NCBI GenBank assembly: GCA_031256175.1
Contig: JAIRRC010000012.1
Coordinates: 914-64,913, forward strand
DNA from: Rickettsiales bacterium
GTDB taxonomy: Bacteria > Pseudomonadota > Alphaproteobacteria > Rs-D84
Reading direction: 5' to 3'
DNA length: 64,000 bases
The notes beneath the pieces were generated by a model. It did not search any database, was not told the DNA's origin, and saw nothing but the letters and a program-made list of their open reading frames with translations. A program made the position numbers and the translations under genes. Shown one piece after another: positions 6,423-54,660 of the stretch (position 1 is the first letter of the stretch; each line of letters begins with the position of its first letter).

Positions 6423-6495
6423 AAATTCCCTTGCTAGCCGGCGGGCTATTTGTTATAATTTAGGGAAGTATTAGGGGAAGAAAAGGAAATCGATT

Positions 6496-8887: not shown

Positions 8888-8909
8888 ATTCGCAGCAGGG
8901 GGAAATCTT

Positions 8910-10178: not shown

Positions 10179-10797
10179 GAAATATTTGATTGCCGCGCTG
10201 CTGTCCGCGCTTGCCGCGCCGGTCTTCGCGGACGATATAAACCTGGACGAATTCGACGCCGAAGGTTCGGTCTTCCTTCGCATAACCGCGCTGGAACAGG
10301 ACAAGGTCCTGATGAGGCTTGAAAAGGAGCGCGCGCAGCTTGCGCTCGACCTAAGCCGCATAGAGGCCGAAAAGTCGCGCCTTGCCGGAAGCGAAAGCGC
10401 GCCCGCGGGCGACGCCTCGGCCGAGCTTGCCGCCCAGTTCGACGAAGAGCGCAGGAAGATGAACGAGGAATTGGAGCGTTTCCGCCGCCAGCTCGACGAA
10501 GTCAAAACCGCGCCGCGCGAACCTGCCGATGCGCCCGCCCGCGCCGCCGATGTCGCCGCGGCTTCGGACGACGGCGAATTCGACATAGCCGACCATTACC
10601 GCCTTGTTCACATAACCGGGACCGAAGGCAATCTTAAAGCCATGGTCGAAATCGTCGCGAACGGCCACAGGCAGCGCGTCGGCGAAGGCCACGCATTCGA
10701 CGGATTCGTCGTGCAGGGAATTTCAAGCGGCGATGGCGTTCGGCTGGAGCGGGACGGCGAAGTCTTCCAGCTTCGCATGGTGAACGCCGCGAGATAA
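10168..10797 (+). CDS. Pilus biogenesis protein, PilP-like (signal peptide, coiled coil, C-terminal beta domain)
   Basis: Signal peptide MLCKKYLIAALLSALAAPVFA, a coiled-coil stretch, and a C-terminal HR-like beta domain YRLVHITGTEGNLKAMVEIVANGHRQRVGEGHAFDGFVVQGI. The start overlaps the previous gene by 11 nt. Confidence 0.4.
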   Translation: MLCKKYLIAALLSALAAPVFADDINLDEFDAEGSVFLRITALEQDKVLMRLEKERAQLALDLSRIEAEKSRLAGSESAPAGDASAELAAQFDEERRKMNEELERFRRQLDEVKTAPREPADAPARAADVAAASDDGEFDIADHYRLVHITGTEGNLKAMVEIVANGHRQRVGEGHAFDGFVVQGISSGDGVRLERDGEVFQLRMVNAAR

Positions 10798-10824
10798 AAT
10801 AACGCCATAAGTGGGAGAGAGCGA

Positions 10825-12450: not shown

Positions 12451-13523
12451 TGGCGACCAAGCTCGATATAATTTATTCGAAAATCATGTTCCGGTTCGAT
12501 ACGGCGAAGCGCCTTAACGCGTATCGGAAATTGTCGTCGCTGCTTCGGAACGATTTCACCTTGATTGAATCGTTGGACCGGCTTGTCGCGATAGAAAGCC
12601 GCGAGGGGAAAAAACCCAGCGAGCCCTTCGCCGTCGCTTACGCCGACTGGCAGGCCAAGCTGGAACGCGGATACACTTTTTCCGAAGCCATATCCGGCTG
12701 GGCGCCCGAGATAGAAGTCCTTATGCTTTCGGCGTCCGACATTTCGAAGCTTTGGGTCGCGCTTGAAAACGCCGTCAGGGTGGTCGAGGGCGGAAATAAA
12801 ATCAGCGGCGCGTTGGTGTCGGCGCTTTCCTATCCTTTGTTTTTGCTGGCCGCGACATTCGCGATAGTCGTCATGGTCGGGACGTATTTACTGCCGCCCA
12901 TGCTGGAAGCCGCGGGCAGGGACGTCATATGGCGCGGCGCCGCGCGCACCCTTGTAAGCGTGTCGGAATTCTTCGGCGCGAACTGGATTGTCATGGCGGG
13001 CGGGCTTGTCGGCGCCGCGGCATTGATTGCGTTTTCCATGCCGGTTATGCGCGGTCGCCTGCGGACCATGCTGGACAATATTCCGCCCTGGTCGCTTTAT
13101 AAGATTTCCGCAAGCGCCGGCTGGCTGGTGAGTCTTGCGTCGCTTATCAAGGCGGGCGCGACATTGCCCGAAGCGCTTAAAATGATGTCGCAGAATTCGA
13201 ACGGCTATCTGGCCGATGTGTCGGACAAGGCGCTTAACAATGTTATCGCCGGGCACAATCTCGGCGACGCTTTGGACGCCGCAGGTTTGCATTTCCCGAA
13301 CGATGAAATCATAGGCGATTTGAAAATCTATGCGGACATGGACGAATTCGACAAGAACCTTATGAATGTCGCGACTGAATACATGGATAATTCCGTCAAA
13401 AGCATAGAAACGACGGCGAACCTTTTGAATTCGATAGGCGTGCTTCTGATTTCGGTCGTCATAGCGTGGGTCGTCTTCGGCACCTTCGAAATGCAGGACC
13501 AAGTCGCCGCCGCTATCAGCTGA
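12450..13523 (+). CDS. Inner-membrane platform protein (GspF/PilC/TcpE/R64 PilR family)
   Basis: 357 aa with three hydrophobic segments in the GspF-like arrangement. The start overlaps the ATPase stop (TGATG). Confidence 0.7.
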   Translation: MATKLDIIYSKIMFRFDTAKRLNAYRKLSSLLRNDFTLIESLDRLVAIESREGKKPSEPFAVAYADWQAKLERGYTFSEAISGWAPEIEVLMLSASDISKLWVALENAVRVVEGGNKISGALVSALSYPLFLLAATFAIVVMVGTYLLPPMLEAAGRDVIWRGAARTLVSVSEFFGANWIVMAGGLVGAAALIAFSMPVMRGRLRTMLDNIPPWSLYKISASAGWLVSLASLIKAGATLPEALKMMSQNSNGYLADVSDKALNNVIAGHNLGDALDAAGLHFPNDEIIGDLKIYADMDEFDKNLMNVATEYMDNSVKSIETTANLLNSIGVLLISVVIAWVVFGTFEMQDQVAAAIS

Positions 13524-22697: not shown

Positions 22698-23959
22698 AGT
22701 TTTTCATGCGAACCTTCGGCTGCCAGATGAACGTCTATGACGGCCAGAGAATCGCAAGCCTTCTCGAAAAATCAGGATACGCCGAAACATCCGAAATCCC
22801 GGAAGCCGACGTCATAATAATAAACACCTGCGCGGTGCGCGAAAAGGCGTCGGAAAAAATATTCTCGCTTTTGGGAAAAATTTCGAAAACGAAAAAGGCG
22901 GGCGCGCTGCTCGGCATAGTCGGCTGCGTCGCGCGGGCCGAGGGCGCAAACGCGTTCCGCCGCATAAAGGGCCTGAACTTCGCGCTCGGGCCGCAGTCGT
23001 ATCACAAGCTGCCCGAAGTATTGCGCGAATCGAAATATATGGACGTAGATTTGTCCGGCCTGGAAAAATTCGACGCGCTGCCGACGAACACGCGCAGCAC
23101 CGCAATCGCATACGTGCCCGTTCAGGAAGGCTGTTCGCATTGCTGCACCTATTGCATAGTGCCCTTCACGCGCGGGCCGGAAGTGTCGCGCGATATGGAT
23201 TCGGTCATGTTCGAGGCCCTCGCCGCCGCGGCGCGCGGCGCGGTCGAAATATGCTTCCTTGGCCAGAACGTGAACGGATACAAGCCGGGCTTGGCCGAAC
23301 TTATCCGCCGCGCGGCGAAGATAGAGGGGGTCCGGCGCATAAGATACACTTCGTCCTATCCGACCGAAATGACGGACGATTTAATCGCGCTTCACGGGAC
23401 GGAAGAAAAATTACTGCCCTTCGTGAATATGCCGCTTCAATCTGGTTCGCTCGAAATTCTGAAACGCATGAACCGGCCTTATGACATCGAACAATACCTC
23501 GGCGTTATGGAAAAGTTCAAAGCCGCGCGGCCGGACATAAAAATTTCAAGCGACTTCATAGTGGGATTTCCGGGCGAAACCGAAAAAGATTTCGAAATGA
23601 CGATGGAAATAGTGCGCCGGTGCGGCTTCATAAATTCCTATCCTTTCAAATATTCCCCGCGCCCGCGCACCGCCGCGGCCCTTATGGACGGCCAGGTCGC
23701 CGAAGACGTGAAATCGCGGCGCCTTGAAGAGCTGGACAATCTTCTTAATGAAAACAACCGGGAATTCAACGAAAGTCTGGTCGGGCGCACTTTGACGTGT
23801 CTGGTCGGCGAGGCGGGAAAAAAATCCGGCCAGGTTATAGCGCGCACGCCTTGGACGCAGCAGGTTGTCCTTGACGGCGCCGGCGCGCTCATGGGAAAAT
23901 TGGTCGACATCAAAATAACTTCCGGAAACAAAAGCAGTCTGCGGGGCGAAATCAAATGA
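22694..23959 (+). CDS. miaB: Radical-SAM methylthiotransferase of the MiaB/RimO family (MTTase, radical SAM and TRAM domains)
   Basis: N-terminal MTTase domain (FGCQMN), radical SAM motif CSHCCTYC, and a C-terminal TRAM region. Its position ahead of ybeY-lnt matches the conserved miaB neighbourhood. Confidence 0.65.
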   Translation: MKFFMRTFGCQMNVYDGQRIASLLEKSGYAETSEIPEADVIIINTCAVREKASEKIFSLLGKISKTKKAGALLGIVGCVARAEGANAFRRIKGLNFALGPQSYHKLPEVLRESKYMDVDLSGLEKFDALPTNTRSTAIAYVPVQEGCSHCCTYCIVPFTRGPEVSRDMDSVMFEALAAAARGAVEICFLGQNVNGYKPGLAELIRRAAKIEGVRRIRYTSSYPTEMTDDLIALHGTEEKLLPFVNMPLQSGSLEILKRMNRPYDIEQYLGVMEKFKAARPDIKISSDFIVGFPGETEKDFEMTMEIVRRCGFINSYPFKYSPRPRTAAALMDGQVAEDVKSRRLEELDNLLNENNREFNESLVGRTLTCLVGEAGKKSGQVIARTPWTQQVVLDGAGALMGKLVDIKITSGNKSSLRGEIK

Positions 23960-25746
23960 CGAAAGTTCTTGTTCAAATCCACGACAAAAGATGGAACGGC
24001 GTCAAGCTGGACTATGAAAAAATCATAAATTCCGCTTTGAAAAACAATGCCGAGGTTTCGGTTCTTCTTACGGACGACAAGGAAATCCGCGCGCTTAACA
24101 AGAAATACCGGAACATCGACAAGCCCACCAACGTCCTTTCGTTCGAAACCGGCGACCCCGAGATAATGGGCGACATAGTCCTGTCGTTCGACACGATTCT
24201 GCGCGAATCCGATGAAAAAAAATTCGCGGCGCACGCGACGCATATGCTTGTCCATGGCGCGCTACACTTGGCCGGATACGACCATATAAAGGATTCCGAC
24301 GCCATCATAATGGAATCGCGCGAGGCGAAAATTCTGCGGAAAATAAGATGGGGAAAATGGGTCCGGCGCGCGGCGCTTTTCGCGCTTGGCGGTTTGGCGA
24401 CACTCGGCTTCGCGCCGCATTATTTCTGGTTCATGACCATCTTCGCCATCGGCCTGGCGTATAAGACGGCGCGCGGATACAAGGACGGGTTCTTCTTCGG
24501 CGCGGGATACGCCGCGTTCGCCCTAAGCTGGATGATAAATTCATTCTTCGTGGACGAAGCGGCCGCCGCGATTTTCGGATTTTTGGCGCCGGTCGCCTTA
24601 ATCGGACTTGCAATCGGCGGCGGAATCATATTCGGCCTGCCATTCGCGCTTACGGCCGCGACAAAAGATTACAGCTGGCGAAGGCCGTTTTATTTCGCCG
24701 CGTTCTCTGCGCTCGTCCTTTGGCTGCGCGGCTGGCTTTTCAGCGGATTCCCATGGAATCCCCTTGCCGGAATATTGTTGGAATACGAATCCGCCGCGAA
24801 CATGACTGGCGTCATAGGGGTCGTCGGAACAAGTTTCTTAATCGCCGGAATTTCCGCCGCGATTTTTTCAAAAAAACTAATTCCGATTTTATTTTTCACC
24901 TTGATATTCGCGGCGCTTTCGGTCGTCGGATTCGGAAGGACGATGTCCTATATACCGCTGGCGCCGACCGGAAAGACGGCGCGAATTGTCCAGCCCGCCA
25001 TAGCGCAAGCCTTCAAATCCGACCGCGCAATGGCCGAAGAAAATTTGAAAATCGTCTTGAAATTATCCGACCTGCCGGGCGAATTCGACTTCATAGTATG
25101 GCCGGAAAGCGCGTATCCATATCTTGTGAACGAATTCCAGCGGCTGGATTTTTCCTTCGAAAAACCCCTTGTATTCGGCGGCCTGCGCCGCGGCGCGTCC
25201 GGCTATTACAATTCGATGTTCGTTTTGGAGAACGGAAAAATAACGGCCGTCTACGACAAGCGCCACCTGGTTCCGTTCGGCGAATACAGCCCGCTTGGAC
25301 CGCTTGTGCCGGTGCCCGGGACATTCATGTTCGGCGATGAAAACCAAGGCGCCATGGGCGGTTTCGCGCCGTCTATCTGCTACGAGATAATTTTCCCGGA
25401 TACGGCGGGCGCGGCCGCGGCGGACTTTATAATAAACATTACGAACGACGGATGGTTCGGCAAGTCCAAGGGGCCGCACCAGCACCTTGCGATGGCGCGG
25501 CTGCGCGCAATCGAATCGGGCCTTCCGGTAATCCGCGCGAATTATTCGGGCATATCGGCGGTCATCAATCCGCTGGGCGAAATAACGGCGCGGCTTCCGA
25601 TAGGCGAGCGCGGAATCATAGACGCGCCGGTGCCGCCAAAAATGGAATCAAGCGCGCCGTCGCCGAACGCCGCGATTATAACAATACTGCTTATGGCCGC
25701 CGCGATTCGTTTAACAAGAAGACGCGCAAAGCCGAAGAGAGATTAG
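23956..25746 (+). CDS. ybeY-lnt: In-frame fusion of endoribonuclease YbeY with apolipoprotein N-acyltransferase Lnt
   Basis: The N-terminal ~125 aa carry the YbeY Zn-site motif HGALHLAGYDH. They continue without a stop into multi-TM segments and a CN-hydrolase domain with the Lnt catalytic E/K/C (WPESAYP, YDKRHLVPFGEY, SICYEIIF). Confidence 0.8.
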   Translation: MTKVLVQIHDKRWNGVKLDYEKIINSALKNNAEVSVLLTDDKEIRALNKKYRNIDKPTNVLSFETGDPEIMGDIVLSFDTILRESDEKKFAAHATHMLVHGALHLAGYDHIKDSDAIIMESREAKILRKIRWGKWVRRAALFALGGLATLGFAPHYFWFMTIFAIGLAYKTARGYKDGFFFGAGYAAFALSWMINSFFVDEAAAAIFGFLAPVALIGLAIGGGIIFGLPFALTAATKDYSWRRPFYFAAFSALVLWLRGWLFSGFPWNPLAGILLEYESAANMTGVIGVVGTSFLIAGISAAIFSKKLIPILFFTLIFAALSVVGFGRTMSYIPLAPTGKTARIVQPAIAQAFKSDRAMAEENLKIVLKLSDLPGEFDFIVWPESAYPYLVNEFQRLDFSFEKPLVFGGLRRGASGYYNSMFVLENGKITAVYDKRHLVPFGEYSPLGPLVPVPGTFMFGDENQGAMGGFAPSICYEIIFPDTAGAAAADFIINITNDGWFGKSKGPHQHLAMARLRAIESGLPVIRANYSGISAVINPLGEITARLPIGERGIIDAPVPPKMESSAPSPNAAIITILLMAAAIRLTRRRAKPKRD

Positions 25747-26317: not shown

Positions 26318-26836
26318 TTACTCCCTGCTTCCGCTTATCGCGCTCATGACGTCGCTTGCCAGGACGTCGGACATGCGGTCGCTTGTCGCGTTTCCGCCCG
26401 GCGAATTCATGGACGACATGGACGTTAGATAAATCGGTTTTTTCGGATTCGGATAGAAGAATTTTTCCGCGCCGGCCTGGGCCGCTATGAAAACGTCTAT
26501 TGCGCGGCCTTCGCTTGCGGCGCGGCAGACGAACATATTGTCCGGCGAAATCGCGCCGCCGAAAATCGGCGGAACGCGGAATTTCACGGAAACATTTGCC
26601 GGAATCCTTTCGCCTTTAAGCATGGCCATGATGTCGTCCATCGGCAGGTCCATCATCATAAGCTCGTCCCTGTAATCCTGGATGATATTCGTCAGAAGCG
26701 CGCGCCGCGCGGCGCGGTATGCCGCGAACCAGTCGCGCGGCAAGGGGCGCGGGCGGGCGTCGACATCCGCCACCGGCAAATCCGACAATCCCATCGAAGC
26801 CAAAATCCGTTCCGCGTCCGCCTGCGATTTCATCAT
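26318..26836 (-). CDS. Hypothetical protein (172 aa), no recognisable domain
   Basis: Start trimmed to MMKSQADAERIL, which overlaps (ATGA) the stop of the upstream membrane-protein gene. The upstream 48 codons of the tracked ORF lie inside that gene. Confidence 0.4.
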   Translation of the reverse strand: MMKSQADAERILASMGLSDLPVADVDARPRPLPRDWFAAYRAARRALLTNIIQDYRDELMMMDLPMDDIMAMLKGERIPANVSVKFRVPPIFGGAISPDNMFVCRAASEGRAIDVFIAAQAGAEKFFYPNPKKPIYLTSMSSMNSPGGNATSDRMSDVLASDVMSAISGSRE

Positions 26837-27834
26837 TTCTTGTCCCCGCCGTAATACCAAAGAATCGTGTCCATATATTCCACGAAGGATTCGTTCTTCG
26901 GAAGCTTTTCGATTTCGCGCGCGAAGGCTGTCAGCTCGGGCACGCCATGGTTCATGACCTTGACGCCGAGGGCCGCCCATATGCTGGAAAGCTTTTCGTA
27001 ATTTTCGATGTTGCCGTCGGCCATGACGACGAAGGGAACGATTTTTATCTGCATTCCGGCGTCGAGGGTTTCGGCGAACAGGGCTTGCAAAGCCTCGACC
27101 GCGGAATAGATTTCGGAAACCGGCGACTTGAATCCGCCGTCTATGTCGGAAGACCAGATATTCTTTCCGCCCTCGTGCGCCATGACGCGGCCGTGCGCGC
27201 CGCAGACTATTCCTATGTATAATTCCTCGCCATTCAGGGCCCAGACGTCGAGCTGAACGCCTTCGATTTTCGGCGCCTTGCCGATGGTGAATCCGGCGGA
27301 TTCCAGCTCGCGCAGGACTTCGGGCGCGGCGTTCGATTTTATTTCCTCGTCCGTGTTGGCGGGCGCCGGGGTGGGCGACAGGACAGGTTGATAAGTCGGA
27401 ACCGCGGGCGGCGTCGCCGGGCGATACATGGGCTGGGCAAGCGGCGCCATTCTGCGCGGCCTTTCCAAGGCGGTGGCGGCGGCCGAAATTTCCACCGGCT
27501 TTATGTCGAGCACGGGCGAAGCCGCGGGCGAAGCGACAAGCAACGGCATATAATTATCGGCGGGCGCATTCGCTTTCGCGAATCGAATCCGGCGGCGCGG
27601 GCGAACAAGCGCGAACCATACGACCGCTACGGAATAGACCGCGAAAAACAGCATCGCGATATAAAAGCCCCCGGCAATCGCCTGTCCGTCCAGCTGCATG
27701 TCCATGAAATACCGCCAGTGCGCGACCGACAGAATATTGAAGCCGAACGCAAGGTTCGCATAGGCGGAAAATCCCATGACGCCTATGGTCTGCAAAAATG
27801 CGAATTCGAGAAATTTCCGAAGGGATTTCATCAT
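26833..27834 (-). CDS. Membrane protein with a Pro/Ala-rich linker and a C-terminal domain showing weak NERD (PD-(D/E)xK-like) similarity
   Basis: Three predicted N-terminal TM helices. The C-terminal LDVWALNGEELYIGIVCG...NIWS...SPVSEIY...IKIVPFVVMAD follows the NERD pattern, but the catalytic E/K positions appear substituted. Confidence 0.45.
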   Translation of the reverse strand: MMKSLRKFLEFAFLQTIGVMGFSAYANLAFGFNILSVAHWRYFMDMQLDGQAIAGGFYIAMLFFAVYSVAVVWFALVRPRRRIRFAKANAPADNYMPLLVASPAASPVLDIKPVEISAAATALERPRRMAPLAQPMYRPATPPAVPTYQPVLSPTPAPANTDEEIKSNAAPEVLRELESAGFTIGKAPKIEGVQLDVWALNGEELYIGIVCGAHGRVMAHEGGKNIWSSDIDGGFKSPVSEIYSAVEALQALFAETLDAGMQIKIVPFVVMADGNIENYEKLSSIWAALGVKVMNHGVPELTAFAREIEKLPKNESFVEYMDTILWYYGGDKK

Positions 27835-32051: not shown

Positions 32052-32086
32052 AAAACTCCCCCCTTGCGGGAGAGTTGTTTTATTAC
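32052..32086. terminator. Bidirectional terminator hairpin of the AACTCCCCCC..GGGAGAGTT family
   Basis: A-run, aaactcccccc-ttgc-gggagagttg, T-run. It lies between convergent genes. Confidence 0.7.
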
Positions 32087-33366
32087 CAGCTTAAACTGCG
32101 TGTGGTCGATTGGGATTTCCTGTCGCCGAACATGTCGCGTTCGGTCTGTCTTAGAACTTTGAACTGGTCCGTCGATATGACGCGCAAGACGAACGAGCCG
32201 TCCGCCCTGTCGACCAGGACCGGTATGATGCGGCTTTCATGCACGCCCGAATCTATCAGCACCTGGTTGATTATCGCAAGGCGCCGCGCCGCCAGGCGTT
32301 TCGCCTCGGTGTTCGAAACCGCGTCTTCGGACACGGAAATTTGAATCGCGCGCTTCGGATTGTTCGCAATCATCGAGGCGTATTCGGACAGCAGATTGAA
32401 ATTGTCCTTGGTAAGCGCGCTGTCGTTGTCGGCGAAGCTCATCCTGATTTCGAGGGTTTTGGGCATGGATGCGTTCGCATTAATCGAATTGTCGCCGACG
32501 AATCCTTCCTGCGTTACGATTTCCCAATTGTCCGAGCTTAAAGAATCGAAATCTTCGTTCGAATATGCGGAAAGATGCTTGTTTTCCGATATGTAGGATT
32601 TATAGAACGCTTGTTTGAGTTCGCGCGGGGACAGCCTGTTCATCGGAACTTCGCCCGTGTCTTTCGGCGCGAATTCGTCGGTCGTGTTTCGCGCGATTAT
32701 GCGCGCCGGCCTGTCCGCCGGAGCATTTGCGAAGGCGGGCACCGGCTCTGGCGCGGCGACGGCGAATTGTTTATCATCTGACATACCGCGGCTTGACCGC
32801 GGTATCCCGGCATTGTTTATATTATTGGAAAATTTTTCCACGGCCGATTTCGCGCGGCTCGCTTTCTGCTGGCGGTTCTTTTGTTCAATCATGCGCGCGA
32901 TGGAATTGTCGATTTGCGCCTTGCGCTCCGCGTTCGATTGCTTGGGCGCTTGGCGGACCGGCTCGGGCGCGTATGCGATTTTGCTTTTATCTATGTATTC
33001 TTCCGGAAGCGAAAATTCTTCCGCGTCCAGCCGCACGATTTCACCCGCCCGCGGCATGCGGATTTTTTGTTCCGAATATGTTTCGGGTTTTTTGCCCGTA
33101 TTCGCCCAAAGCTCGGAATTCGGCCTGCGCGGCACAAGGACTTCGTTCGCGCCGCTATACTTGGGCGTGCTTGCGGGCTTGCCCGCCGAAGCCTTGGCGA
33201 AGGCGGGCGCGGGTTTCGCGAGAATGGTTTTTTGCGCGCCGAACAATTCCTTGGCCGACACGCTGCCGCGTTCGTATGAAACGCTTGGCAGCTGCGCCGC
33301 CGCGGCCGCATTGTGCGATATAAGCGCGGCAAGAACCGCGAAAATGCCGATTGAATTCCCCTTCAT
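32083..33366 (-). CDS. Secreted protein with a degenerate OmpA-like C-terminal domain
   Basis: Start trimmed to MKGNSIGIFAVLAALISHNAAAAA (signal peptide). The C-terminal AIQISVSE...EAKRLAARRLAIINQVLIDSGV..SRI follows the OmpA_C pattern but lacks GHTD. Confidence 0.4.
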   Translation of the reverse strand: MKGNSIGIFAVLAALISHNAAAAAQLPSVSYERGSVSAKELFGAQKTILAKPAPAFAKASAGKPASTPKYSGANEVLVPRRPNSELWANTGKKPETYSEQKIRMPRAGEIVRLDAEEFSLPEEYIDKSKIAYAPEPVRQAPKQSNAERKAQIDNSIARMIEQKNRQQKASRAKSAVEKFSNNINNAGIPRSSRGMSDDKQFAVAAPEPVPAFANAPADRPARIIARNTTDEFAPKDTGEVPMNRLSPRELKQAFYKSYISENKHLSAYSNEDFDSLSSDNWEIVTQEGFVGDNSINANASMPKTLEIRMSFADNDSALTKDNFNLLSEYASMIANNPKRAIQISVSEDAVSNTEAKRLAARRLAIINQVLIDSGVHESRIIPVLVDRADGSFVLRVISTDQFKVLRQTERDMFGDRKSQSTTRSLSW

Positions 33367-33455
33367 GCAAGGATTGTATCTTAAATCGGCCGGGCGGGTC
33401 AATGGCAAAATAGTTGCATTCGGGGCGCCGTCGGCGTATAATGAATATACGATTT

Positions 33456-33481
33456 GAGATTCCGACCTTCGTCGGAATGAC
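33456..33481. repeat. Palindromic element ..ATTCCGACCTTCGTCGGAATGAC (family copy)
   Basis: 23-nt identity with the 18037-18062 copy. Confidence 0.7.
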
Positions 33482-33490
33482 AAGGAAAAA

Positions 33491-39981: not shown

Positions 39982-41610
39982 ATGCAAAAAAAGATAGTAT
40001 TCGGAATCATCGGCGCCATGGCGTTTTCGGCGCAGGTTCATGCGGCGGGCGTGGAAGCCGGCCGGGCCGTTCTTCGCGGCGCGCCCATGCCGGCCGGAAA
40101 TAACGCCAATCTGGCGGACATAGTCCGCGCGAGCGCCGCCGCCAATGTCCGCGCGCCGGGCGACGTCCAGGTCGTGAACCCGAACACCGGAAACATAATG
40201 ACCGAAAGCTTTTTGGCCGACGGCACCATCCTTTACACCGACCCCGTAACGGGTGAAAAATTCGTCATGGCCGGCGGCAAGCTTGTCGCCTATATGGACG
40301 AGGACGACCGCATGGTCCCGGCGCTTAACGTGAACGTCGGCACCGCGCGAAACGTTTGCAACGCCATCGAAGCATACGGCTATCAGGGCGAATTCAACGA
40401 GCTTACGTATGAGTGCATGGTGCCGATAGTCGCGGTCGGAACCGGCGGAAAGATTAGCAGCGGCGACGGCGACGCGGTCGCTTTCTATCCCTTCGGTTCC
40501 TATGTGAAGTGCGACGCCGGCATGTTCGACACCATCAGCGTCATGCGCAGGAATTCCCAATATATCGTTCCCGCGATGATTGTGGGCGGCGGCCTTGCGG
40601 GCGCCGGCATCGGACTTGCGGTCGATAAATATCAGGAAGGCCAGGCCAAGAAAAAAGTCGACGCCAACGCGGCCGCCGCTGGCGCCGAGGCCGGTGTCGC
40701 CGCGGCTTCGTCCGGCTCCAAGCTTTCCACCAAGCAGGATTTCCTTGCCGAGATTGAAAGAATCAAAAAACAGATGGACGCCAACGACACGACTTTCTGG
40801 TGCGCGTCCTTGCCGCGCGACGTCGCGAATAATATAAAGAGCACGATGGCCGCCGGAACCACATGGAACTGCATAGCCCAGTCGGAGCTTAAATATCCGA
40901 ACCAGGGCGACGCCTTCATGTTCGACGTGATAGCGGGCAACCTGAACAATGCGAAGGATATGCTCAGCAGAACCAACCGGGAATGCCAGCCCGCTTTGGA
41001 TATAATGAATTATATAAACAACACCGCGAAGTTCGAATACGCGCCAAGCATTAAATGCGCCGGAAAGACCGGGCCCGCGGTTACCATCAAATATAGCGTC
41101 GACGGCCAATGGAAATACTTCGGCGACAACGAGATACTGGAAGGCAAGCGCCGCGCGAACGAAATGTCGTCTAAGCTCGAAGCTTTGGTGAAGAATCTTC
41201 CGCCGGTCGGAAACTTCGACAAGGCGCAGTATATGGCAGACAGGGCGAACAGGGTTAACGAGCTTAAACTGCTCGAACCGCAAATCGCCGGTTCTAACCT
41301 CAGCCAATCCGAGAAGAACGACCTTTATATAATCATAAACGACCTGTCCAAGCTGTATATAAAGCAGGACGGCGAGAAGCAGTCCATCTTCGGAAAGATT
41401 TGGGACAGCAATGTCGGCAGGGGCGCCATACTCGGAACCGCCGTCGGCGCGGTCGCCGGCACGGCCTATTTCTTCTACGAGGGCGCGAACACCAAATGCG
41501 ACATCGGCGGATTCAAGTCCATCGGCCTTGACGACACCTTCCGCATGCCGAGCTTCCGCGACTTCATCCAAACCAATATGCCGGCCGTTCTTCCCGAGCC
41601 CGAAATATAG
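39982..41610 (+). CDS. Large secreted/membrane protein of unknown function (542 aa)
   Basis: Sec signal peptide MQKKIVFGIIGAMAFSAQVHA and two internal Gly-rich hydrophobic segments. No recognisable domain. Confidence 0.45.
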   Translation: MQKKIVFGIIGAMAFSAQVHAAGVEAGRAVLRGAPMPAGNNANLADIVRASAAANVRAPGDVQVVNPNTGNIMTESFLADGTILYTDPVTGEKFVMAGGKLVAYMDEDDRMVPALNVNVGTARNVCNAIEAYGYQGEFNELTYECMVPIVAVGTGGKISSGDGDAVAFYPFGSYVKCDAGMFDTISVMRRNSQYIVPAMIVGGGLAGAGIGLAVDKYQEGQAKKKVDANAAAAGAEAGVAAASSGSKLSTKQDFLAEIERIKKQMDANDTTFWCASLPRDVANNIKSTMAAGTTWNCIAQSELKYPNQGDAFMFDVIAGNLNNAKDMLSRTNRECQPALDIMNYINNTAKFEYAPSIKCAGKTGPAVTIKYSVDGQWKYFGDNEILEGKRRANEMSSKLEALVKNLPPVGNFDKAQYMADRANRVNELKLLEPQIAGSNLSQSEKNDLYIIINDLSKLYIKQDGEKQSIFGKIWDSNVGRGAILGTAVGAVAGTAYFFYEGANTKCDIGGFKSIGLDDTFRMPSFRDFIQTNMPAVLPEPEI

Positions 41611-43873: not shown

Positions 43874-43960
43874 GCGGATATGGCGGAACTGGTAGACGCG
43901 CTAGTTTCAGGTACTAGTGAACGCAAGTTCATGGAGGTTCGAGTCCTCTTATCCGCACCA
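43874..43960 (+). tRNA. tRNA-Leu (anticodon CAG), class II with a long variable arm
   Basis: Hand-folded cloverleaf: acceptor GCGGATA/TATCCGC, anticodon stem CTAGT/ACTAG with loop TTCAGGT, long variable arm, T-loop GTTCGAGT, 3' CCA encoded. Confidence 0.85.
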
Positions 43961-43978
43961 TTTTTGTCTGTTTTTACT

Positions 43979-44053
43979 GGCCCCATCGTCTAGCGGTTAG
44001 GACGCAAGATTCTCATTCTTGAAACCCGGGTTCGATTCCCGGTGGGGTCGCCA
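43979..44053 (+). tRNA. tRNA-Glu (anticodon CTC)
   Basis: Acceptor GGCCCCA/TGGGGTC (one G-U pair), anticodon stem CAAGA/TCTTG with loop TTCTCAT, T-arm CCGGGTTCGATTCCCGG, CCA encoded. Confidence 0.8.
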
Positions 44054-44060
44054 AAAAATC

Positions 44061-44191: not shown

Positions 44192-44216
44192 CGAATCCCG
44201 GTGGGGTCGCCAAAAA
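44192..44216. repeat. Direct repeat of the tRNA-Glu 3' end (25/26 nt: CGAATCCCGGTGGGGTCGCCAAAAA), att-like scar
   Basis: Near-identical to 44033-44058 inside tRNA-Glu, about 135 nt downstream. No cloverleaf upstream of it, so it is not a second tRNA. Confidence 0.7.
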
Positions 44217-46094: not shown

Positions 46095-47423
46095 TTATCT
46101 TGAATACGAGAACGTCCCGTTGACGCCGGATATTATGACAGACGGCTTGTCGCTTCCGTTGTGCGCGACCTCGCCGATTATTTTGGACGCGACATTGTAT
46201 CGCATGGCTATGTTCTGGATTTTCTCGGCGGTTTTTTCGTCCTCGACATAAATCTCGAATCCGCATCCCATGTTGAAGTCTTCATACATTCCCTTCCACT
46301 GCGCGCCCGTTTCGGCCTGGATAAGCCCGAAAAGCGCGGGCATGTCGAACAGGTTGTCTTTTATTATCGTCATCGGCCGGGACAGATAGTTCAGGACTTT
46401 CGTCATGCCTCCGCCGCTGTTGTGCACCATGCCCTTGATTTTCCTGTTTCCGATTTCCCTGTATATGTCCCTGCATATCGGCGCATAGGTGCGCGTCGGC
46501 GACAGGGCCAGTTTTCCGAAGGGAATCTGCTCGTCCGTTTCGACCTTTATCAAGTCGGTTAGTTTTTTCGTTCCGTTGTATGCGTTTTCGCCGATTCCGA
46601 CGAATACGTTTTCGATGTGTTTTTCCAAATCGTTTTGAAGGGCGGTCGGAATCCTGTAATTTTTTCTCATGATTTCTTTAAGCTCTTTGATGTGGAGCAT
46701 TCCGAATCCGCCGTTGTATGTTTCCGGATATTTCCATCGGTATTCGGGATGGATAAGGTCGTGCCGCATTCTTGTGTATCCGTTGCTGCGCGCGCCGCCG
46801 TTGTAGGAATCTTCATAGGTCGCCTGCCCGTGCGAGGCCAGTCCCACGACTTTCTGCCCCGGCGCGATGTTTCCATTATTGATGACGTCGCGTTTTTTCA
46901 TGCGGCAGTGCATCGCGTTGTTGATTAGGATTGTAGGCGTCAGGTCCGGGACGTCGGCGGTCTCGCCGCATTGGCCGTTTATGTTTATGCCGAAAAGCCG
47001 CATGGTGTGAAGGAAATAATTCTCGCCGTTTATAAGTTCGGCCAGGACTTCGCCCGGTATCCTTTTCGTATTGCGGTCTATGTTGGACGTCAGATGAAGC
47101 TCGCCCGCGATTCCGCCCGCGCAAAGTATGTCGTCTAGGTTCATGACTATCGAATCCTGAACCACCCCGTGCCATACGGATATGTCGCCGGTTTCCTTCC
47201 AATACATATAGGCCAGGGCGGCTTTGGTTCCGGCGCCGTCCGAAGAATTTATGGATACCAAAGGATTTATCCAGTCGGCTATGCGTCCGAAGAAACCGCC
47301 GCGCGGGGCGGGATTGATTTTGCAGAATGCTTTCGGGAAAAGCCCCTTGTCATTGTCCTTTGTCGCCGCATGGACTTCGGGCTTGGACGAGGATACGTCG
47401 TATTTTTCATAGTCTTTGGACAT
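46095..47423 (-). CDS. AIR-synthase-related (PurM-like fold) protein, atypically long at 442 aa
   Basis: N-domain motif NSSDGAGTKAALAYMYWKETGDISVWHGVVQDSIVMNLDDILCAGG parallels PurM's SGTDGVGTK...DLVAMCVNDL. About 80-90 aa longer than canonical PurM. Confidence 0.5.
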   Translation of the reverse strand: MSKDYEKYDVSSSKPEVHAATKDNDKGLFPKAFCKINPAPRGGFFGRIADWINPLVSINSSDGAGTKAALAYMYWKETGDISVWHGVVQDSIVMNLDDILCAGGIAGELHLTSNIDRNTKRIPGEVLAELINGENYFLHTMRLFGININGQCGETADVPDLTPTILINNAMHCRMKKRDVINNGNIAPGQKVVGLASHGQATYEDSYNGGARSNGYTRMRHDLIHPEYRWKYPETYNGGFGMLHIKELKEIMRKNYRIPTALQNDLEKHIENVFVGIGENAYNGTKKLTDLIKVETDEQIPFGKLALSPTRTYAPICRDIYREIGNRKIKGMVHNSGGGMTKVLNYLSRPMTIIKDNLFDMPALFGLIQAETGAQWKGMYEDFNMGCGFEIYVEDEKTAEKIQNIAMRYNVASKIIGEVAHNGSDKPSVIISGVNGTFSYSR

Positions 47424-47484: not shown

Positions 47485-47940
47485 CTATATGTCAATCCCT
47501 TCGATTCGCAAAAGGCGCGTCTTGTTGGCAAGGCCCGATGAATATCCGCCGATGGTTCCGTCCGCCGCTATCACGCGGTGGCAGGGGATTATGATTGATA
47601 TGGGATTTTTTCCGTTCGCGTTTCCGACCGCGCGGCAGGCGAGCGGGCGCCCGATGTTGGTCGCAAGCTGCTTATACGAAATGGCTTTGCCGTATGGAAT
47701 CGCAAGAAGCCCCGACCATACGGATTTTTGGAATTTCGTGCCGGCCGGCGCCAACGGGATTGAAAATTCGCGTCGCGCGCCGGAAAAATATTCGGCCAGT
47801 TGCGCGGCGGCGAGCTTTGTGATTTTGTTCCCTTCGGTCGCGGCGTGGCGCCGCCCGAATTCGAGTTCGATAAGCGCGGCGTCATTCGCGACCAGCGTTA
47901 TAATCCCGTTCGGAGAATCTATATATTGGATGTATTTCAT
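47485..47940 (-). CDS. ogt: O6-methylguanine-DNA methyltransferase
   Basis: Active-site PCHRVI, the HTH region, and a GNANGKNP-type loop. Start trimmed to MKYIQY so that it does not run through the tRNA-end repeat. Confidence 0.85.
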   Translation of the reverse strand: MKYIQYIDSPNGIITLVANDAALIELEFGRRHAATEGNKITKLAAAQLAEYFSGARREFSIPLAPAGTKFQKSVWSGLLAIPYGKAISYKQLATNIGRPLACRAVGNANGKNPISIIIPCHRVIAADGTIGGYSSGLANKTRLLRIEGIDI

Positions 47941-47949
47941 TTTTAATTC

Positions 47950-47971
47950 TGGTGGGTGCTGGGGGATTCGA
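47950..47971. repeat. Direct repeat of the tRNA-Lys 3' end (22 nt TGGTGGGTGCTGGGGGATTCGA), att-like scar
   Basis: Identical to 48065-48086 (the tRNA-Lys 3' end on the minus strand), 115 nt away, beyond the tRNA terminator. Confidence 0.7.
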
Positions 47972-47984
47972 GCACGAGCGAATA

Positions 47985-48018
47985 AGCACACAAAAATTTC
48001 CGTTATTAGGAAATTTTT
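47985..48018 (-). terminator. Terminator for tRNA-Lys (minus strand)
   Basis: Perfect hairpin AAAAATTTCC-GTTATTA-GGAAATTTTT. In the minus-strand transcript it is followed by UUUUUGUGUG. Confidence 0.65.
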
Positions 48019-48064
48019 GATGTGCGCGTCGCGAGGGAACGAAGGACGGCGCACCACGGATTAA

Positions 48065-48140
48065 TGGTGGGTGCTGGGGGATTCGAACCCACGACCAAAT
48101 GATTAAGAGTCATTTGCTCTACCAACTGAGCTAAGCACCC
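48065..48140 (-). tRNA. tRNA-Lys (anticodon CTT)
   Basis: Reverse complement folds as acceptor GGGTGCT/AGCACCC, D-arm GCTCAGTTGGTAGAGC, anticodon stem AATGA/TCATT with loop CTCTTAA, T-arm GTGGGTTCGAATCCCCC (one apparent mismatch), ACCA 3' end. Confidence 0.8.
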
Positions 48141-48253: not shown

Positions 48254-48466
48254 ATGAAAAAACTATCCCTGTTGGCTTTGGCCGCCCTTGTCCTTACCGG
48301 ATGCTACGGTTACACCACCAACAGAACCTTCGACGCCAACGGCAACAAGAAAGATTGCACGGTCGTCGTCGCCAAAACCGGAAACATGGTCTTCGGATAC
48401 GAGGAGAACACCTTCTCGAACATGGCCCGCGGCGAGAAAGACTGCAAGGAATGGATGAAGAAGTAA
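48254..48466 (+). CDS. Small lipoprotein, unknown function
   Basis: Lipobox LTGC after the signal peptide MKKLSLLALAALV. 70 aa. Confidence 0.5.
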   Translation: MKKLSLLALAALVLTGCYGYTTNRTFDANGNKKDCTVVVAKTGNMVFGYEENTFSNMARGEKDCKEWMKK

Positions 48467-48548
48467 TTCTTCCCATACCGGATGAAAGCCCGCGGTTGCG
48501 GGCTTTTTTTTATTTTGTCGTTCCCGCATTTTATGGTATAATTGTCGC

Positions 48549-49220
48549 ATGGATACCAATTCGAAAATGAGCGTAGACGAAATCAGGGAAAGCCTCGGCT
48601 TTTTCCGGCTCGTCATGGACAAGAAAATGGCCGTGGCCGAGCGGCTCCGCTATGTCGCCGAACTTTTCGCGGAATTGGACAGGTTCGTCGCCGCTTCCGG
48701 CGAATACGGCCTCGATTTCAAGAATAAATTCATGCCCGAGGCATACGAGGAATTCTTCAAGGGAAAAATCGCGGCCGTGGATATTCCGGAAAATCTGCTG
48801 GGCGATTCCAATAAGTGGCCCTGGCCGTTCGAATCCAAAAAAGGCGCCGCCGCCAAGGATTTTTACGAAAGGGCTTCGGCCAGGTTCGGCATGATAAAGG
48901 CCGCCGATGCGGCCAAGCCCGAATACGATATAGTCATGCCAAAGCTTACCCCCAGGGAATACGACAATATTTGGAGTTATATTTCCGAATACAGGAAAAT
49001 CATGGACACGGAATTGAACTATGCGAATTCCGCGGTAATCGCGCGGGACCTTGCATTGGCCGCGGATGGTTTGGACGCAAAGATGGCCGCGCTTGGGAAG
49101 GATTCTTCTTCCTATAAGAACCCGGCGGCGCGCATGGGCTTCATGGTCGCCGCAAAGGACGATTCCAGCAAGCTTCCGGTGCCGGTGCAGTTCCGCGTTC
49201 CCGCGAAAATGCAAGGATAG
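48549..49220 (+). CDS. Hypothetical cytoplasmic protein (223 aa), paralogous to the C-terminal half of the next gene
   Basis: Shares several collinear motifs with 49224-50828 (IMDTELNYANS vs YMDMELNYYNS; EAYEEFFKGK..PENLLG vs KLEDEFLSAG..PENPNG). Confidence 0.45.
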   Translation: MDTNSKMSVDEIRESLGFFRLVMDKKMAVAERLRYVAELFAELDRFVAASGEYGLDFKNKFMPEAYEEFFKGKIAAVDIPENLLGDSNKWPWPFESKKGAAAKDFYERASARFGMIKAADAAKPEYDIVMPKLTPREYDNIWSYISEYRKIMDTELNYANSAVIARDLALAADGLDAKMAALGKDSSSYKNPAARMGFMVAAKDDSSKLPVPVQFRVPAKMQG

Positions 49221-49223
49221 GAA

Positions 49224-50828
49224 ATGAAATCCATAAAGACGGAAGACCAGCTTCTTGCCGCATACAAGGCTTGGCGCGCAAGCGATATGTCCGGCAAGAC
49301 TATGGAAAATGACGAATATTCCGCGCAGCTTGGCGGCGAATTCGATTTCAAATTGTCGCCCGACTTGGATTCGGATTTATTGTCGGGCAGGATTCCTGAC
49401 GCCGAAGACTCCGGATTTCTTTTTCTTAACGGACTTGTCCGGAATTCCTTGGACGGGCTTGGGAAAAAGAAGCAGGCCGATTTCATCGACAAGGTTTATG
49501 GCGGAATCGATATGAAGAAAATCGGCGGCGGCTTCGGCAATATGGAAATCCTGGCGCGCGCTTTCAACAAGTATATAAGGGTCAACCAGTATGTCGGCGC
49601 GAAGGCCCAGCTTGTCAACAAGGAATTCTTCGACATCGACCGCGAGCGGCCGGTGAATTTTTCCCCTATGGTTTCGGACGAGAAATACGGCGGATACGAA
49701 TTCAGGAAAACCGCGGTGCTTGAAGATTTGAAAAGAAAAGCCGCGGCTGACGAAAAGAAGATAAAGGATTCTTCCATGCCCGCGCCGCGCGCCTTTCCGC
49801 CCGCCGCCGCGCCGAAAAAGAAATCCGGCGCGGACAGGGAAGCTTTCAAGAAAGACGTCGCGGCCGAAAAGATAGTGGCGTCAGCCCTGCGCGCCCTTGC
49901 GGAATTCAAGTCGGTCGTCGACAAAAAGGTCGCGCTGGCTTACAAGCTTTACGACATACACCAGGAATTCCAGAAGGATTTCGGCAAGCTTCGCGAAATG
50001 GCGCGGGGCTATAAGGGCAAGTTCACCTACGGGTATCCGATTGCCGCCCAGAAGTTGGAGGATGAATTTTTGTCGGCCGGAATCGGAAACGTCGCGGATT
50101 ACGAGGTGCCTGAAAATCCCAACGGCTTTTTCGCCGGAAAGTATGAGAAGGACTTCTATAATAAGTTCGCCGACTTGGCGCAAAGGATAAAGGACAAGGT
50201 TCTCGCCGCCGAGAAGCGGGGCGCGCTTGCCGGCGCCACGGACCCGATGATGCCGGAATTTTCGAACGACGAGCGCGCGGTTATAGGGCTCGCCGAAAGG
50301 AACGTGAACACGTATGTGTCGGCCGCGTTTTTCGGCGAGAACCTTGACGACTATAAGAACAATAGCCGGATAGATGTCAATGTGGGCGACTATGAGCGCT
50401 ATATGGATATGGAATTGAATTATTACAATTCGGGCGACGTCGCCTATCGCTTGGGCGAGAAGGCGCAGTATCTGACCGACCAGGTTTCCCAGGCGGAAAA
50501 ATCTTTGGCGACTTTAAGGACGCGCATAGCCGAAAAGCGCGCCGAAATCGACGCGGCGGACCTTGAAGCGGCCAGGCATGCGGCGCGCGTTGAAGAATTC
50601 AAAAACGAAATCGCGGTGTTTGACCCGGACAAATTCGCGCTCGGCAAATCCGAAACGACCAAAAATTATTTGGAAAAAGCGTCGAAGCGCTTGAAGAACA
50701 AAGCCGCATGGGATAGTTCCCCTTCGGGCGTCGTCCTGCTGGACAGAAAGCTTGCGGAGGAAAAGAAGGCGGCGGCGGAAAATAAAGCCGCGCGCCTGGC
50801 GCTCCATAAATCCCGCAGCGAATTATAA
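49224..50828 (+). CDS. Hypothetical cytoplasmic protein (534 aa) with a Lys/Glu-rich coiled-coil C-terminus, paralogous to the preceding gene
   Basis: No signal peptide or known domain. An internal region is homologous to the upstream 223-aa protein. Confidence 0.45.
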   Translation: MKSIKTEDQLLAAYKAWRASDMSGKTMENDEYSAQLGGEFDFKLSPDLDSDLLSGRIPDAEDSGFLFLNGLVRNSLDGLGKKKQADFIDKVYGGIDMKKIGGGFGNMEILARAFNKYIRVNQYVGAKAQLVNKEFFDIDRERPVNFSPMVSDEKYGGYEFRKTAVLEDLKRKAAADEKKIKDSSMPAPRAFPPAAAPKKKSGADREAFKKDVAAEKIVASALRALAEFKSVVDKKVALAYKLYDIHQEFQKDFGKLREMARGYKGKFTYGYPIAAQKLEDEFLSAGIGNVADYEVPENPNGFFAGKYEKDFYNKFADLAQRIKDKVLAAEKRGALAGATDPMMPEFSNDERAVIGLAERNVNTYVSAAFFGENLDDYKNNSRIDVNVGDYERYMDMELNYYNSGDVAYRLGEKAQYLTDQVSQAEKSLATLRTRIAEKRAEIDAADLEAARHAARVEEFKNEIAVFDPDKFALGKSETTKNYLEKASKRLKNKAAWDSSPSGVVLLDRKLAEEKKAAAENKAARLALHKSRSEL

Positions 50829-50875
50829 TAAATATTTTATAAAAAACTCCCCCGCAAGGGGGAGCTGACAATAAT

Positions 50876-52969: not shown

Positions 52970-54262
52970 ATGTCCGCTGTTGAACAACCCAAAAATTTGT
53001 TCGAAGACTTTATGGGCTCGGTCGCCGACGCCGTGCGTCCCGCGGAATTCAACACATGGTTTTCCAAAGTGTCGGGCAGCGCCGACGGCGGCAAAATAAT
53101 TTTGCGCGCGCCCAGCGACTTCGTCGCGGGCTGCATAAAGAACAGATACAAATCCGCGTTGGAATTGCTCGCGGCCGAAATGAAGCTTGGCCTTGAAATA
53201 GGCAGCCGCATGAATTCCGCCGCGGCCGAGGCCGCGAATATCAATGACAACAAACCCGCCGTCGCATCCGCGCCCGCGCCGCGCCCGGAAACCGATTCAT
53301 ATTCCTTCGAAAATTTCATAACAAGCGCGGAAAACGAATTCGTCGTCGCGGCTTGCAAAAAACTTTCGGCCGCGAATGTCGGGTTTTCGCCGCTGTTTTT
53401 ATACGGCGCCAGCGGCTGCGGTAAAACGCACTTGGCGCGCGCGGTCAGGAATGAAATCGTCCTTGGCGGCGACCGGAGCGTCGTCATGCTTTCGGGCGAC
53501 AGGTTCGTGTCCGACTTCGTGCGGTCGCTCAAAAACCAGACCAACTTCGCCTTCAAGGATAAAATCGCGTCGGCTGACGTCCTTATAATAGACGGCGTGG
53601 AAAGCTTGATTGGAAAATCCGCGACGCTCGCCGAATTTGAATCGCTTCTGGTTTCCGTAATCGAAAACGGCGGGAATGTGGTGCTGACGGCGTCCCAGGC
53701 GCCGGGCGCGCTTTCGGGAATTTCGCGCCGCTTGCAGTCTTTATTGTCGTCCGGCGTGGTCGCCGATGTCGCGTCGCCGAACGCCGCGGCGAAAATGCGG
53801 ATTCTGAAGACCGCGGGCGCGACCGATGAAGTCGCCCGGTTCGTCGCGGAGAATTCCGCCTGCGACGGGCATGTTGTCGCGGGACTGGCGAAAAAAATAT
53901 CGGTCTGGTGCGAAACCTTCGGAATGAAGATGACCTTGGATGAATCGCGCCGCGTCTTGGGCGATTCGCTTAATGGGAAAAAATCGCCGGAAGATTTCGT
54001 GAAGAAGATGTGCGCGGCGCTTGCGGTGTCGTTCGATGAAATAATGTCCGCGCGGCGCCAGGCGAAAATCGTGCGCGCGCGTCAGATGATGATGCACGTG
54101 CTGAAATCGGAAACGAATATGTCGTTGTCCGAAATCGGCCGCGCGCTTGGCGGCAAGGACCACGCCACGATTATTTATGGAATCAATAATATCGAAAAAC
54201 AGAAACTATCCGACCTTACATTAACGGCGGAATTGGAAACATTGCGCGCCGCGATGAATTAG
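52970..54262 (+). CDS. dnaA: Chromosomal replication initiator DnaA
   Basis: AAA+ Walker A GASGCGKTHL, Walker B DVLIIDGVESL, and the domain IV DNA-binding helix (MSLSEIGRALGGKDHATIIYGINNIEK). Start chosen at MSAVEQ with a strong RBS gaaggaagga; the tracked ORF begins 57 nt upstream at 52913. Confidence 0.9.
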   Translation: MSAVEQPKNLFEDFMGSVADAVRPAEFNTWFSKVSGSADGGKIILRAPSDFVAGCIKNRYKSALELLAAEMKLGLEIGSRMNSAAAEAANINDNKPAVASAPAPRPETDSYSFENFITSAENEFVVAACKKLSAANVGFSPLFLYGASGCGKTHLARAVRNEIVLGGDRSVVMLSGDRFVSDFVRSLKNQTNFAFKDKIASADVLIIDGVESLIGKSATLAEFESLLVSVIENGGNVVLTASQAPGALSGISRRLQSLLSSGVVADVASPNAAAKMRILKTAGATDEVARFVAENSACDGHVVAGLAKKISVWCETFGMKMTLDESRRVLGDSLNGKKSPEDFVKKMCAALAVSFDEIMSARRQAKIVRARQMMMHVLKSETNMSLSEIGRALGGKDHATIIYGINNIEKQKLSDLTLTAELETLRAAMN

Positions 54263-54660
54263 TCTTCGTATGGCGCCTGTGCCGCAGTCGGTGCGGCGGA
54301 CTTGGGCGCCGATAGGTTTCTTTCTTCTACCTTTATGTTTTTTGCGTCCTTGACGACGCATAGATGGTTTTTATTCAATTCGAATCCGGCGTCGCATTCC
54401 TTGACGATTTTCTTTACGCATTCGCCGGTCTTGGCGTCGAAGGTCGTGGTATCCGGGCAGAAATCGACAGGGTCGACGCAGCCGCTTTGCGCGGCGTTCG
54501 GAATCTGTCCGTCCTTGCAGAATACGCAGTGCGTCCCCTTGGATATTTGCGCGGGCCCGCAGGCGACGCAGTCGCCGGCCTTGTTGGTGAATTCGTTCGG
54601 CTCGCACGCCAGGGCGGGCGTTATGATTGTCGTTAAAACCGCAAGGATAAGGAATCGCAT
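54259..54660 (-). CDS. Secreted cysteine-rich repeat protein, unknown function
   Basis: Signal peptide followed by 14 Cys residues in repeated CxxC / CxDG arrangements. 133 aa. Confidence 0.45.
   Translation of the reverse strand: MRFLILAVLTTIITPALACEPNEFTNKAGDCVACGPAQISKGTHCVFCKDGQIPNAAQSGCVDPVDFCPDTTTFDAKTGECVKKIVKECDAGFELNKNHLCVVKDAKNIKVEERNLSAPKSAAPTAAQAPYED

Follow-up and report, generated by a model that had tools for sequence, protein, structure and literature searches.

Helical-hairpin and coiled-coil proteins (FlgL and the flagellin D0/D1 domains, FliJ/YscO/HrpB7, ESCRT-III/PspA/Vipp1, and SMC coiled coils), the secreted effectors of Rickettsiales, and tRNA-linked genomic islands are the described systems closest to the locus reported here. 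The Rickettsiales effectors are lineage-specific and constitute a general class, not a homology family. The locus is a pair of adjacent genes, LBG89_01205 and LBG89_01210, on a 64,000-nucleotide stretch of contig JAIRRC010000012.1 (hereafter the window), from a termite-gut metagenome-assembled genome (MAG) that NCBI labels "Rickettsiales bacterium." In the list of open reading frames (ORFs), the first gene encodes a protein of 223 residues (the short paralogue; positions 48549–49220, plus strand) and the second a protein of 534 residues (the long paralogue; 49224–50828, plus strand). Both are exact database records annotated as hypothetical proteins. Judged by sequence comparison, the two genes are real, old, adjacent tandem paralogues, and their family is an orphan comprising four sequences in two MAGs. 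By its layout, the pair forms a two-gene operon; it belongs to the native, vertically inherited genome.

Distribution of the Family and Likeness to Known Proteins

When each paralogue was compared with 5.8 billion proteins in a word-indexed search, the query itself and one relative apiece came back. The relatives, LBH81_00400 and LBH81_00405 (55% and 51% identity), lie on contig JAIRUP010000002.1 of a second Rickettsiales MAG, isolate Cyl330_bin36, which we refer to as the sister genome. An exhaustive HMMER search of 1.84 billion cluster representatives used a profile of the four aligned sequences, from which the coiled coil had been removed so that composition alone would not produce matches; it recovered exactly the four input proteins. 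A scan of genome contigs likewise matched the sister MAG only, and no match was found among metagenome contigs (JGI) or viral contigs. These results bear out the initial annotation of this DNA, which had called the family unrecognised.

We then compared the four proteins with described families. None reached the cutoff of any family in Pfam-A, NCBIfam, PHROGs, or PADLOC, in agreement with the earlier statement that the proteins contain no known domain. The best match below cutoff was to HrpB7 (NCBIfam), a faint similarity on residues 417–464 of the long protein (E = 0.008) that, at 16.5 bits, lies far below the cutoff of 134; CTP_synth_N, MucBP_2, and TnpV all gave E > 0.03. Against PDB sequences, profiles of the long pair, the short pair, and the C-terminal module had no match, the last two even at E ≤ 10. 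The C-terminal 79 residues retrieved nothing in a word-indexed search, not even the parent protein, as this was a low-sensitivity search. In the literature, we found nothing on these MAGs or on the paralogue family.

An AlphaFold2 model of the long protein, computed from the four-sequence alignment, was all-helical (mean predicted local distance difference test score (pLDDT) 59, predicted template modelling score 0.42), with helices of about 60 residues at positions 200–262 and 403–464; the pLDDT of the shared module reached 75–85 in places. The model of the 336-residue sister orthologue of the short protein (pLDDT 50) was unusable. Antiparallel 60-residue helices, as predicted for the long protein, are what the pair has in common with FlgL, flagellin, FliJ/YscO/HrpB7, ESCRT-III/PspA/Vipp1, and SMC coiled coils. 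However, identity to FlgL, flagellin, FliJ, ESCRT-III, PspA, Vipp1, and SMC proteins is 5–12%, and no Pfam model of these families matches. Foldseek with the low-confidence long model returned generic helical hairpins, with nothing below E = 0.07 and TM scores of at most 0.2. Neither a profile match nor a specific fold match was thus found that would place the pair among PspA/Vipp1/ESCRT-III or the flagellar axial proteins (FlgL, flagellin), and the likeness to helical-hairpin and coiled-coil proteins is one of predicted secondary and supersecondary structure only.

The new family is genuine but of a common kind, since host-associated MAGs often encode helical orphans. The window contains other conserved ORFs without a Pfam match at 6460–7617, 26833–27834, 32083–33483, and 39982–41610.

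Paralogy of the Short and Long Proteins

In a single BLASTP comparison, residues 15–169 of the short protein and 224–411 of the long one aligned with 23% of positions identical (E = 1e-5). The Smith-Waterman score of this module alignment was 98 as against 34 ± 6 in 1000 shuffles (z = 10.6; 0/1000), and three more cross-genome comparisons of short and long modules gave z values of 5.5, 5.1, and 1.4. The proposal that the two adjacent ORFs are paralogous was therefore borne out. The motifs quoted in its favour are present and collinear in the short and long proteins (MDTELNYANS/MDMELNYYNS, PENLLG/PENPNG, and KKMAVA/KKVALA, respectively). Collinearity had been claimed with residues ~220–450 of the long protein; it holds to about residue 411 and fails beyond, the tail of the short protein (residues 170–223) being unlike the long one.

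The N-terminal ~75 residues of the long protein match the N terminus of the 336-residue sister orthologue of the short protein, P0004. The match holds for the long protein of each genome (z = 14 and 8.5; tblastn E ~1e-4; hhalign E = 2e-4). As the paralogy extends to the N-terminal domain as well as to the central module, the genes are whole-gene duplicates and do not merely share a single module. When the short-pair profile was compared with the long-pair profile, hhalign reported the N-terminal domain match only, at 45% probability; a hidden Markov model built from two sequences is too weak to be useful. We found no internal duplication linking the N-terminal half or the C-terminal tail to the central module, and no further paralogues in the window or in the sister loci.

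The reality of the genes does not depend on one assembly or one gene caller: on a separate Logan assembly (run SRR14710886), an independent caller found the same three genes, namely the short and long paralogues and a small lipoprotein gene upstream of them. In the window, the short and long genes lie in the same frame with only TAG and one codon between them. They occupy different frames in the sister genome, so the shared frame is probably coincidental, and a readthrough fusion of the two was rejected on the same ground.

Synteny and the Question of an Accessory Locus

The initial annotation had interpreted the duplicated genes beside a tRNA as typical of a variable accessory locus. tRNA-linked genomic islands do share some features with this region. 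A tRNA-Lys(CTT) gene (48065–48140, minus strand; ARAGORN, Rfam tRNA 72 bits) adjoins the pair and turns its 5′ end toward it, an exact 22-nucleotide copy of the tRNA 3′ end lies nearby, and the neighbouring lipoprotein cassette is found in only one of the two genomes. On this basis, the pair could be the recently acquired and diverging cargo of an integrative locus at tRNA-Lys.

The comparison of the only two genomes available argues strongly against such an origin. Gene order in the sister genome is the same: DUF2147, glycosylase, a 403-residue ORF, MGMT, tRNA-Lys, short, long, rpsT, plsY, dprA, and dnaA. The pair thus occupies the same slot beside a tRNA that is kept as its neighbour in both genomes. 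Each paralogue is 50–55% identical to its orthologue and 23–30% identical to the neighbouring paralogue, so the duplication predates the split of the two genomes. Two differences alone are specific to the window at this locus: the lipoprotein cassette, and the loss of N-terminal sequence from the short paralogue.

The composition of the pair is native as well. Its GC content is 0.535, compared with 0.55 for the window; GC at third codon positions (GC3) is 0.68–0.69, compared with 0.60–0.74 for other genes; and codon-usage correlation is 0.74–0.87, so that the pair is indistinguishable in composition from the rest of the window. The interval from tRNA-Lys to rpsT holds three genes, those of the lipoprotein and the two paralogues, and no integrase or recombinase gene. 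No repeats or att sites were found flanking the pair, and it had no phage, plasmid, defence-system, or viral matches.

Unlike the cargo of a tRNA-linked island, moreover, the pair is situated at the 5′ side of its tRNA. The sole integration-like trace, the duplicate of the tRNA end, is on the 3′ side, where it encloses only ~93 nucleotides. We therefore consider it very improbable that the pair is cargo of an accessory element; that reading is largely refuted.

The genes upstream are a CopG-like gene, DUF2147, a methylpurine glycosylase, a conserved 442-residue ORF without a Pfam match, and MGMT; downstream lie rpsT (convergent), plsY, dprA, dnaA, a CDP-alcohol phosphatidyltransferase gene, and uvrC. 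These surroundings are a stable housekeeping neighbourhood and not a mobile island. The chief value of the analysis is accordingly negative: here, a tRNA neighbour and tandem paralogues did not signal a mobile or accessory locus.

Protein Architecture and Evolutionary Rate

Both proteins are hydrophilic, contain no cysteine, and have neither a signal peptide, as had been stated earlier, nor a transmembrane segment (maximum 19-residue hydropathy 0.8). The columns invariant across the four sequences hold hydrophobic residues, lysine, proline, and glycine, with no catalytic-looking constellation.

In the short protein, the shared helical module covers residues 11–169 (48579–49055, plus strand), as delimited by BLASTP, the alignment, and a tblastn match to the orthologue at 55% identity. 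After this module come a brief linker and a C-terminal peptide that is conserved (YKN...LPVPVQFRVP). The long protein (all features on the plus strand) begins with a small α/β domain, common to the sister's short paralogue, at residues 1–78 (49224–49457). Its copy of the shared module spans residues ~215–411 (49866–50456), with long helices predicted at 200–262, 306–335, and 381–395. The insertion in P0002 had no match.

The end of the long protein had been described as a Lys/Glu-rich coiled coil, which is correct in part. A heptad-periodic segment is present at residues 407–446 (50442–50561); its score exceeds 95% of the maxima from shuffled sequences, as does that of the corresponding site in P0002, and it falls within the AlphaFold2 helix 403–464. 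What follows is a basic module at residues 459–512 and then a variable helix rich in alanine, lysine, and glutamate. The basic module (FKNEIAVFDPDKFAL...TKNYLEKASKRLKNKAAW...VVLLDRKLAE; 50598–50759) is the most constrained segment of the long protein, at 85% identity between the genomes, and had no match in any search made. Within it, TKNYLEKASKRLKNKAAW is predicted to form a basic amphipathic helix (hydrophobic moment p = 0.02 versus shuffles). The extreme C terminus, AARLA(L/H)(H/L)KSRSEL (50787–50825), is again conserved after the A/K/E-rich linker, whose length varies. Conserved terminal peptides placed after linkers of variable length are in fact found in both proteins: AARLAxxKSRSEL in the long and LP(V/M)PV(Q/T)F(R/A)(V/I)P in the short.

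We next compared the rates at which these genes and their neighbours have diverged. Orthologue identity is 50–53% for the pair versus 64–85% for most neighbours, and the number of nonsynonymous substitutions per site (dN) is 0.40–0.41 versus 0.14–0.33 for six neighbouring genes compared. Rough ratios of dN to its synonymous counterpart (dS) were 0.14 for the short gene and 0.31 for the long gene; as dS is saturated, they are indicative only. These values point to purifying selection on both genes, which nevertheless evolve faster than their neighbours. The rate is uneven along the long protein. Residues 459–512, with dN of 0.15, are constrained like UvrC or DUF2147, whereas the rest is about 50% identical with dN of ~0.43.

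The main alternative to the role proposed below is export. In this alternative, the two proteins would be host-interaction proteins, for example, type IV or other non-Sec effectors, whose conserved extreme C termini act as signals for secretion or docking and whose helical modules bind host targets. Like lineage-specific secreted effectors of Rickettsiales, the pair is an orphan restricted to one lineage, lacks a Sec signal, evolves fast, and carries large indels and low-complexity linkers. The C termini, conserved after the variable linkers, are basic (+3 in the last 30 residues), and NCBI places the organism in a host-associated order. The C terminus of the long protein, with its net charge of +3 and conserved AARLAxxKSRSEL, is compatible with the signal of an effector of a type IV secretion system (T4SS) but not specific to it.

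The pair differs from named effectors, however, in showing no sequence or fold similarity to them and no eukaryote-like domains. No virB or virD4 gene, nor any other T4SS gene, was seen among the ORFs scanned in the window, and virB/virD4 were likewise not seen among those scanned in ~22 kb of the sister genome. The only secretion-type genes of the window, a secretin and a T2SSE ATPase of Tad or type II secretion-like kind, are 35 kb away. The segment that is 85% identical points to a partner that is itself conserved, a situation more usual for an interaction inside the bacterial cell. Finally, an intracellular lifestyle of the MAG is putative only: its GC content is 55%, and it retains many repair and metabolic genes. 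We regard export of the pair as rather unlikely.

Operon Anatomy and the State of the Short Gene

A predicted promoter lies at 48515–48542 (plus strand) and consists of TTGTCG, a 16-nucleotide spacer, and the extended −10 element TGgTATAAT (48534–48542). The −10 region, ATTTTATGrTAwAATTGTCG, is common to both genomes. It is the one promoter-like site ahead of the short gene, and it probably drives transcription of the pair. The ATG of the short gene (48549) comes 7 nucleotides after the −10 element, an arrangement that would be leaderless.

The Shine-Dalgarno sequence (SD) of the long gene, AAGGA (49213–49217, plus strand), lies inside the 3′-terminal codons of the short gene, whose TAG stop (49218–49220) is followed by the ATG of the long gene at 49224. 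The gap between the genes is 3 nucleotides here and 2 in the sister, where the SD has the same layout. The position of the SD inside the end of the short gene together with the 2–3-nucleotide gap suggests that short and long are translationally coupled. Downstream, a GC-rich hairpin (50845–50866) separates the long gene from convergent rpsT; it is the rpsT terminator and is probably bidirectional.

Compared with P0004, the short gene of the window has lost its 5′ untranslated region (UTR), its SD, and ~60–70 N-terminal codons. One or both ORFs, and the truncated, SD-less short gene in particular, might therefore be decaying remnants that no longer make a functional protein. The loss of the N-terminal domain, 5′ UTR, and SD relative to the orthologue favours decay, as does an antisense ORF of similar length that shadows the short gene. 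Against it, the frame of 223 codons is intact, the module retains 55% identity to its orthologue, and indels come in multiples of three. GC3 (0.69) is like that of real genes, and the pairwise dN/dS ratio is ~0.14, although dS is saturated. The predicted promoter has been kept and would start transcription at the ATG itself, giving a leaderless layout that can be translated, and the short gene carries the SD of the long gene. Decay is thus an improbable explanation.

The antisense ORF (48531–49214, minus strand; 227 residues) overlaps nearly all of the short gene. We take it to be a shadow ORF, because on the plus strand the frame is backed by an orthologue, its indels preserve the frame, and its GC3 is 0.69.

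Proposed Role of the Pair

We tentatively favour, at somewhat less than even confidence, a role for the pair as a hetero-oligomeric helical scaffold or adaptor that is docked via the conserved basic C-terminal module of the long subunit. The ancestral protein consisted of a small N-terminal α/β domain, a helical module of ~170–200 residues, a linker of variable kind, and a brief C-terminal peptide that has been conserved. Once the gene had duplicated, the long copy acquired extra sequence inserted between its N-terminal domain and the helical module, and also the coiled coil and the strongly conserved basic C-terminal module. In the genome studied here, the short copy later lost its 5′ UTR, SD, and N-terminal domain. 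The two genes would be co-transcribed, and the SD in the upstream gene with the gap of 2–3 nucleotides suggests that they are co-translated. Their soluble, cysteine-free, helical, and non-enzymatic-looking products may assemble through the homologous modules into a hetero-oligomer. Residues 459–512 of the long subunit and the terminal peptides of both subunits may then dock the complex onto conserved partners, either the membrane or another protein.

In favour of the scaffold proposal are the operon layout, the paralogy of both protein parts, the old duplication with its kept synteny, the native composition, purifying selection, the helical and non-enzymatic look of the proteins, and the constrained amphipathic C-terminal module. 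Other considerations weigh against it. No homologue has a known function. The short subunit, truncated at its N terminus and without an SD, may be decaying, which would weaken a model in which the heteromer is obligate. Fast evolution, large indels, and conserved terminal peptides would suit an exported effector equally well. Lastly, the structure models are of low confidence (pLDDT 59 and 50).

A broader claim is possible but more doubtful, namely that the pair founds an undescribed hetero-oligomeric family of helical-hairpin proteins, belonging to one termite-gut Rickettsiales-like lineage and acting as a new cytoskeletal or membrane scaffold or as an effector pair. The 54-residue basic C-terminal module would then be a new partner- or membrane-binding domain. 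If the pair is a true scaffold or effector, the family is likely to matter mainly to students of this uncultured termite-gut lineage.

The Lipoprotein Cassette

The tiny lipoprotein gene that had been noted between the tRNA-Lys 5′ end and the pair is present as claimed (48254–48466, plus strand; 70 residues, ribosome-binding site AAGGAG), and so is the tRNA. The N terminus of its product, MKKLSLLALAALVLTGC, contains the lipobox LTGC at residues 14–17, which fits the pattern [LVI][ASTVI][GAS]C, and hydropathy peaks there at 1.5. The ORF therefore carries what is by sequence a bacterial lipoprotein signal peptide ending in a lipobox; its similarity to Pfam LPAM_1 (E = 0.015) is below the family cutoff. 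An intrinsic terminator follows at 48484–48507 (plus strand; a 10-bp stem with 6 GC pairs and a T-run), and the gene forms a separate transcription unit. The cassette is inserted between a conserved tRNA-proximal segment of ~50 nucleotides and the operon promoter. It is found in this genome only, with no tblastn match in the sister loci and no plasmid match. The lipoprotein gene is thus outside the conserved pair.

Neighbouring Genes and tRNA 3′-End Duplications

Several other ORFs of the window deserve mention. Between the glycosylase gene and MGMT, the conserved 442-residue ORF (46095–47423, minus strand) shares 58% identity with its sister counterpart and matched no Pfam model at E ≤ 0.001. 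Directly after dnaA, a cysteine-rich ORF of 133 residues (54259–54660, minus strand) has an N-terminal hydrophobic segment, no Pfam match, and 47% identity in the sister genome. A single ORF of 596 residues (23956–25746, plus strand) joins a YbeY endoribonuclease domain (residues 21–129) to the LNT_N/CN_hydrolase domains of an apolipoprotein N-acyltransferase (residues 145–563); fusion of two genes, loss of a stop codon, or an error of assembly could each account for it. The Tad-pilus or type II secretion-like cluster occupies ~6460–13523, with the secretin at 7319–8887 and the T2SSE-family ATPase at 10825–12450, and is adjoined by an ORF of 385 residues without a Pfam match.

The exact 22-nucleotide copy of the tRNA-Lys 3′ end is found at 47950–47971, 115 nucleotides from the original (48065–48086). 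It closes a conserved element of ~93 nucleotides that lies directly 3′ of tRNA-Lys in both genomes and also 3′ of tRNA-Glu in the sister (window 47950–48064, minus orientation; sister locus L001, 8710–8822 and ~4870–4989). Behind each copy stands a perfect repeat of the final ~22 nucleotides of the tRNA at that site. Within the element lies an AT-rich hairpin of about 11–15 bp (11 bp in the minimum free energy fold), in which one compensatory change, C-G to T-A, separates the two genomes; the element as a whole folds with z = −4.8. It belongs to no Rfam family, and an Rfam scan of the region matched the tRNA alone. In appearance it is a miniature integrative element that targets tRNA genes, or else a scar flanked by att sites. 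The MGMT ORF as called mechanically (47485–48057, minus strand; GTG start, 190 residues) extends into this element; its true start is probably an ATG near 47940 (MKYIQYIDSPNG), matching the sister gene calls of 151–167 residues.

A similar duplication accompanies tRNA-Glu(CTC), whose 3′ end (44033–44057) recurs 159 nucleotides downstream (44192–44216) at 96% identity, with a spacer that is longer than, and different from, that in the sister genome. Relative to the fabD/fabG and CopG genes that flank it, the tRNA-Leu(CAG)-tRNA-Glu(CTC) block itself (window 43874–44053; L001 4990–5162) has opposite orientations in the two genomes.

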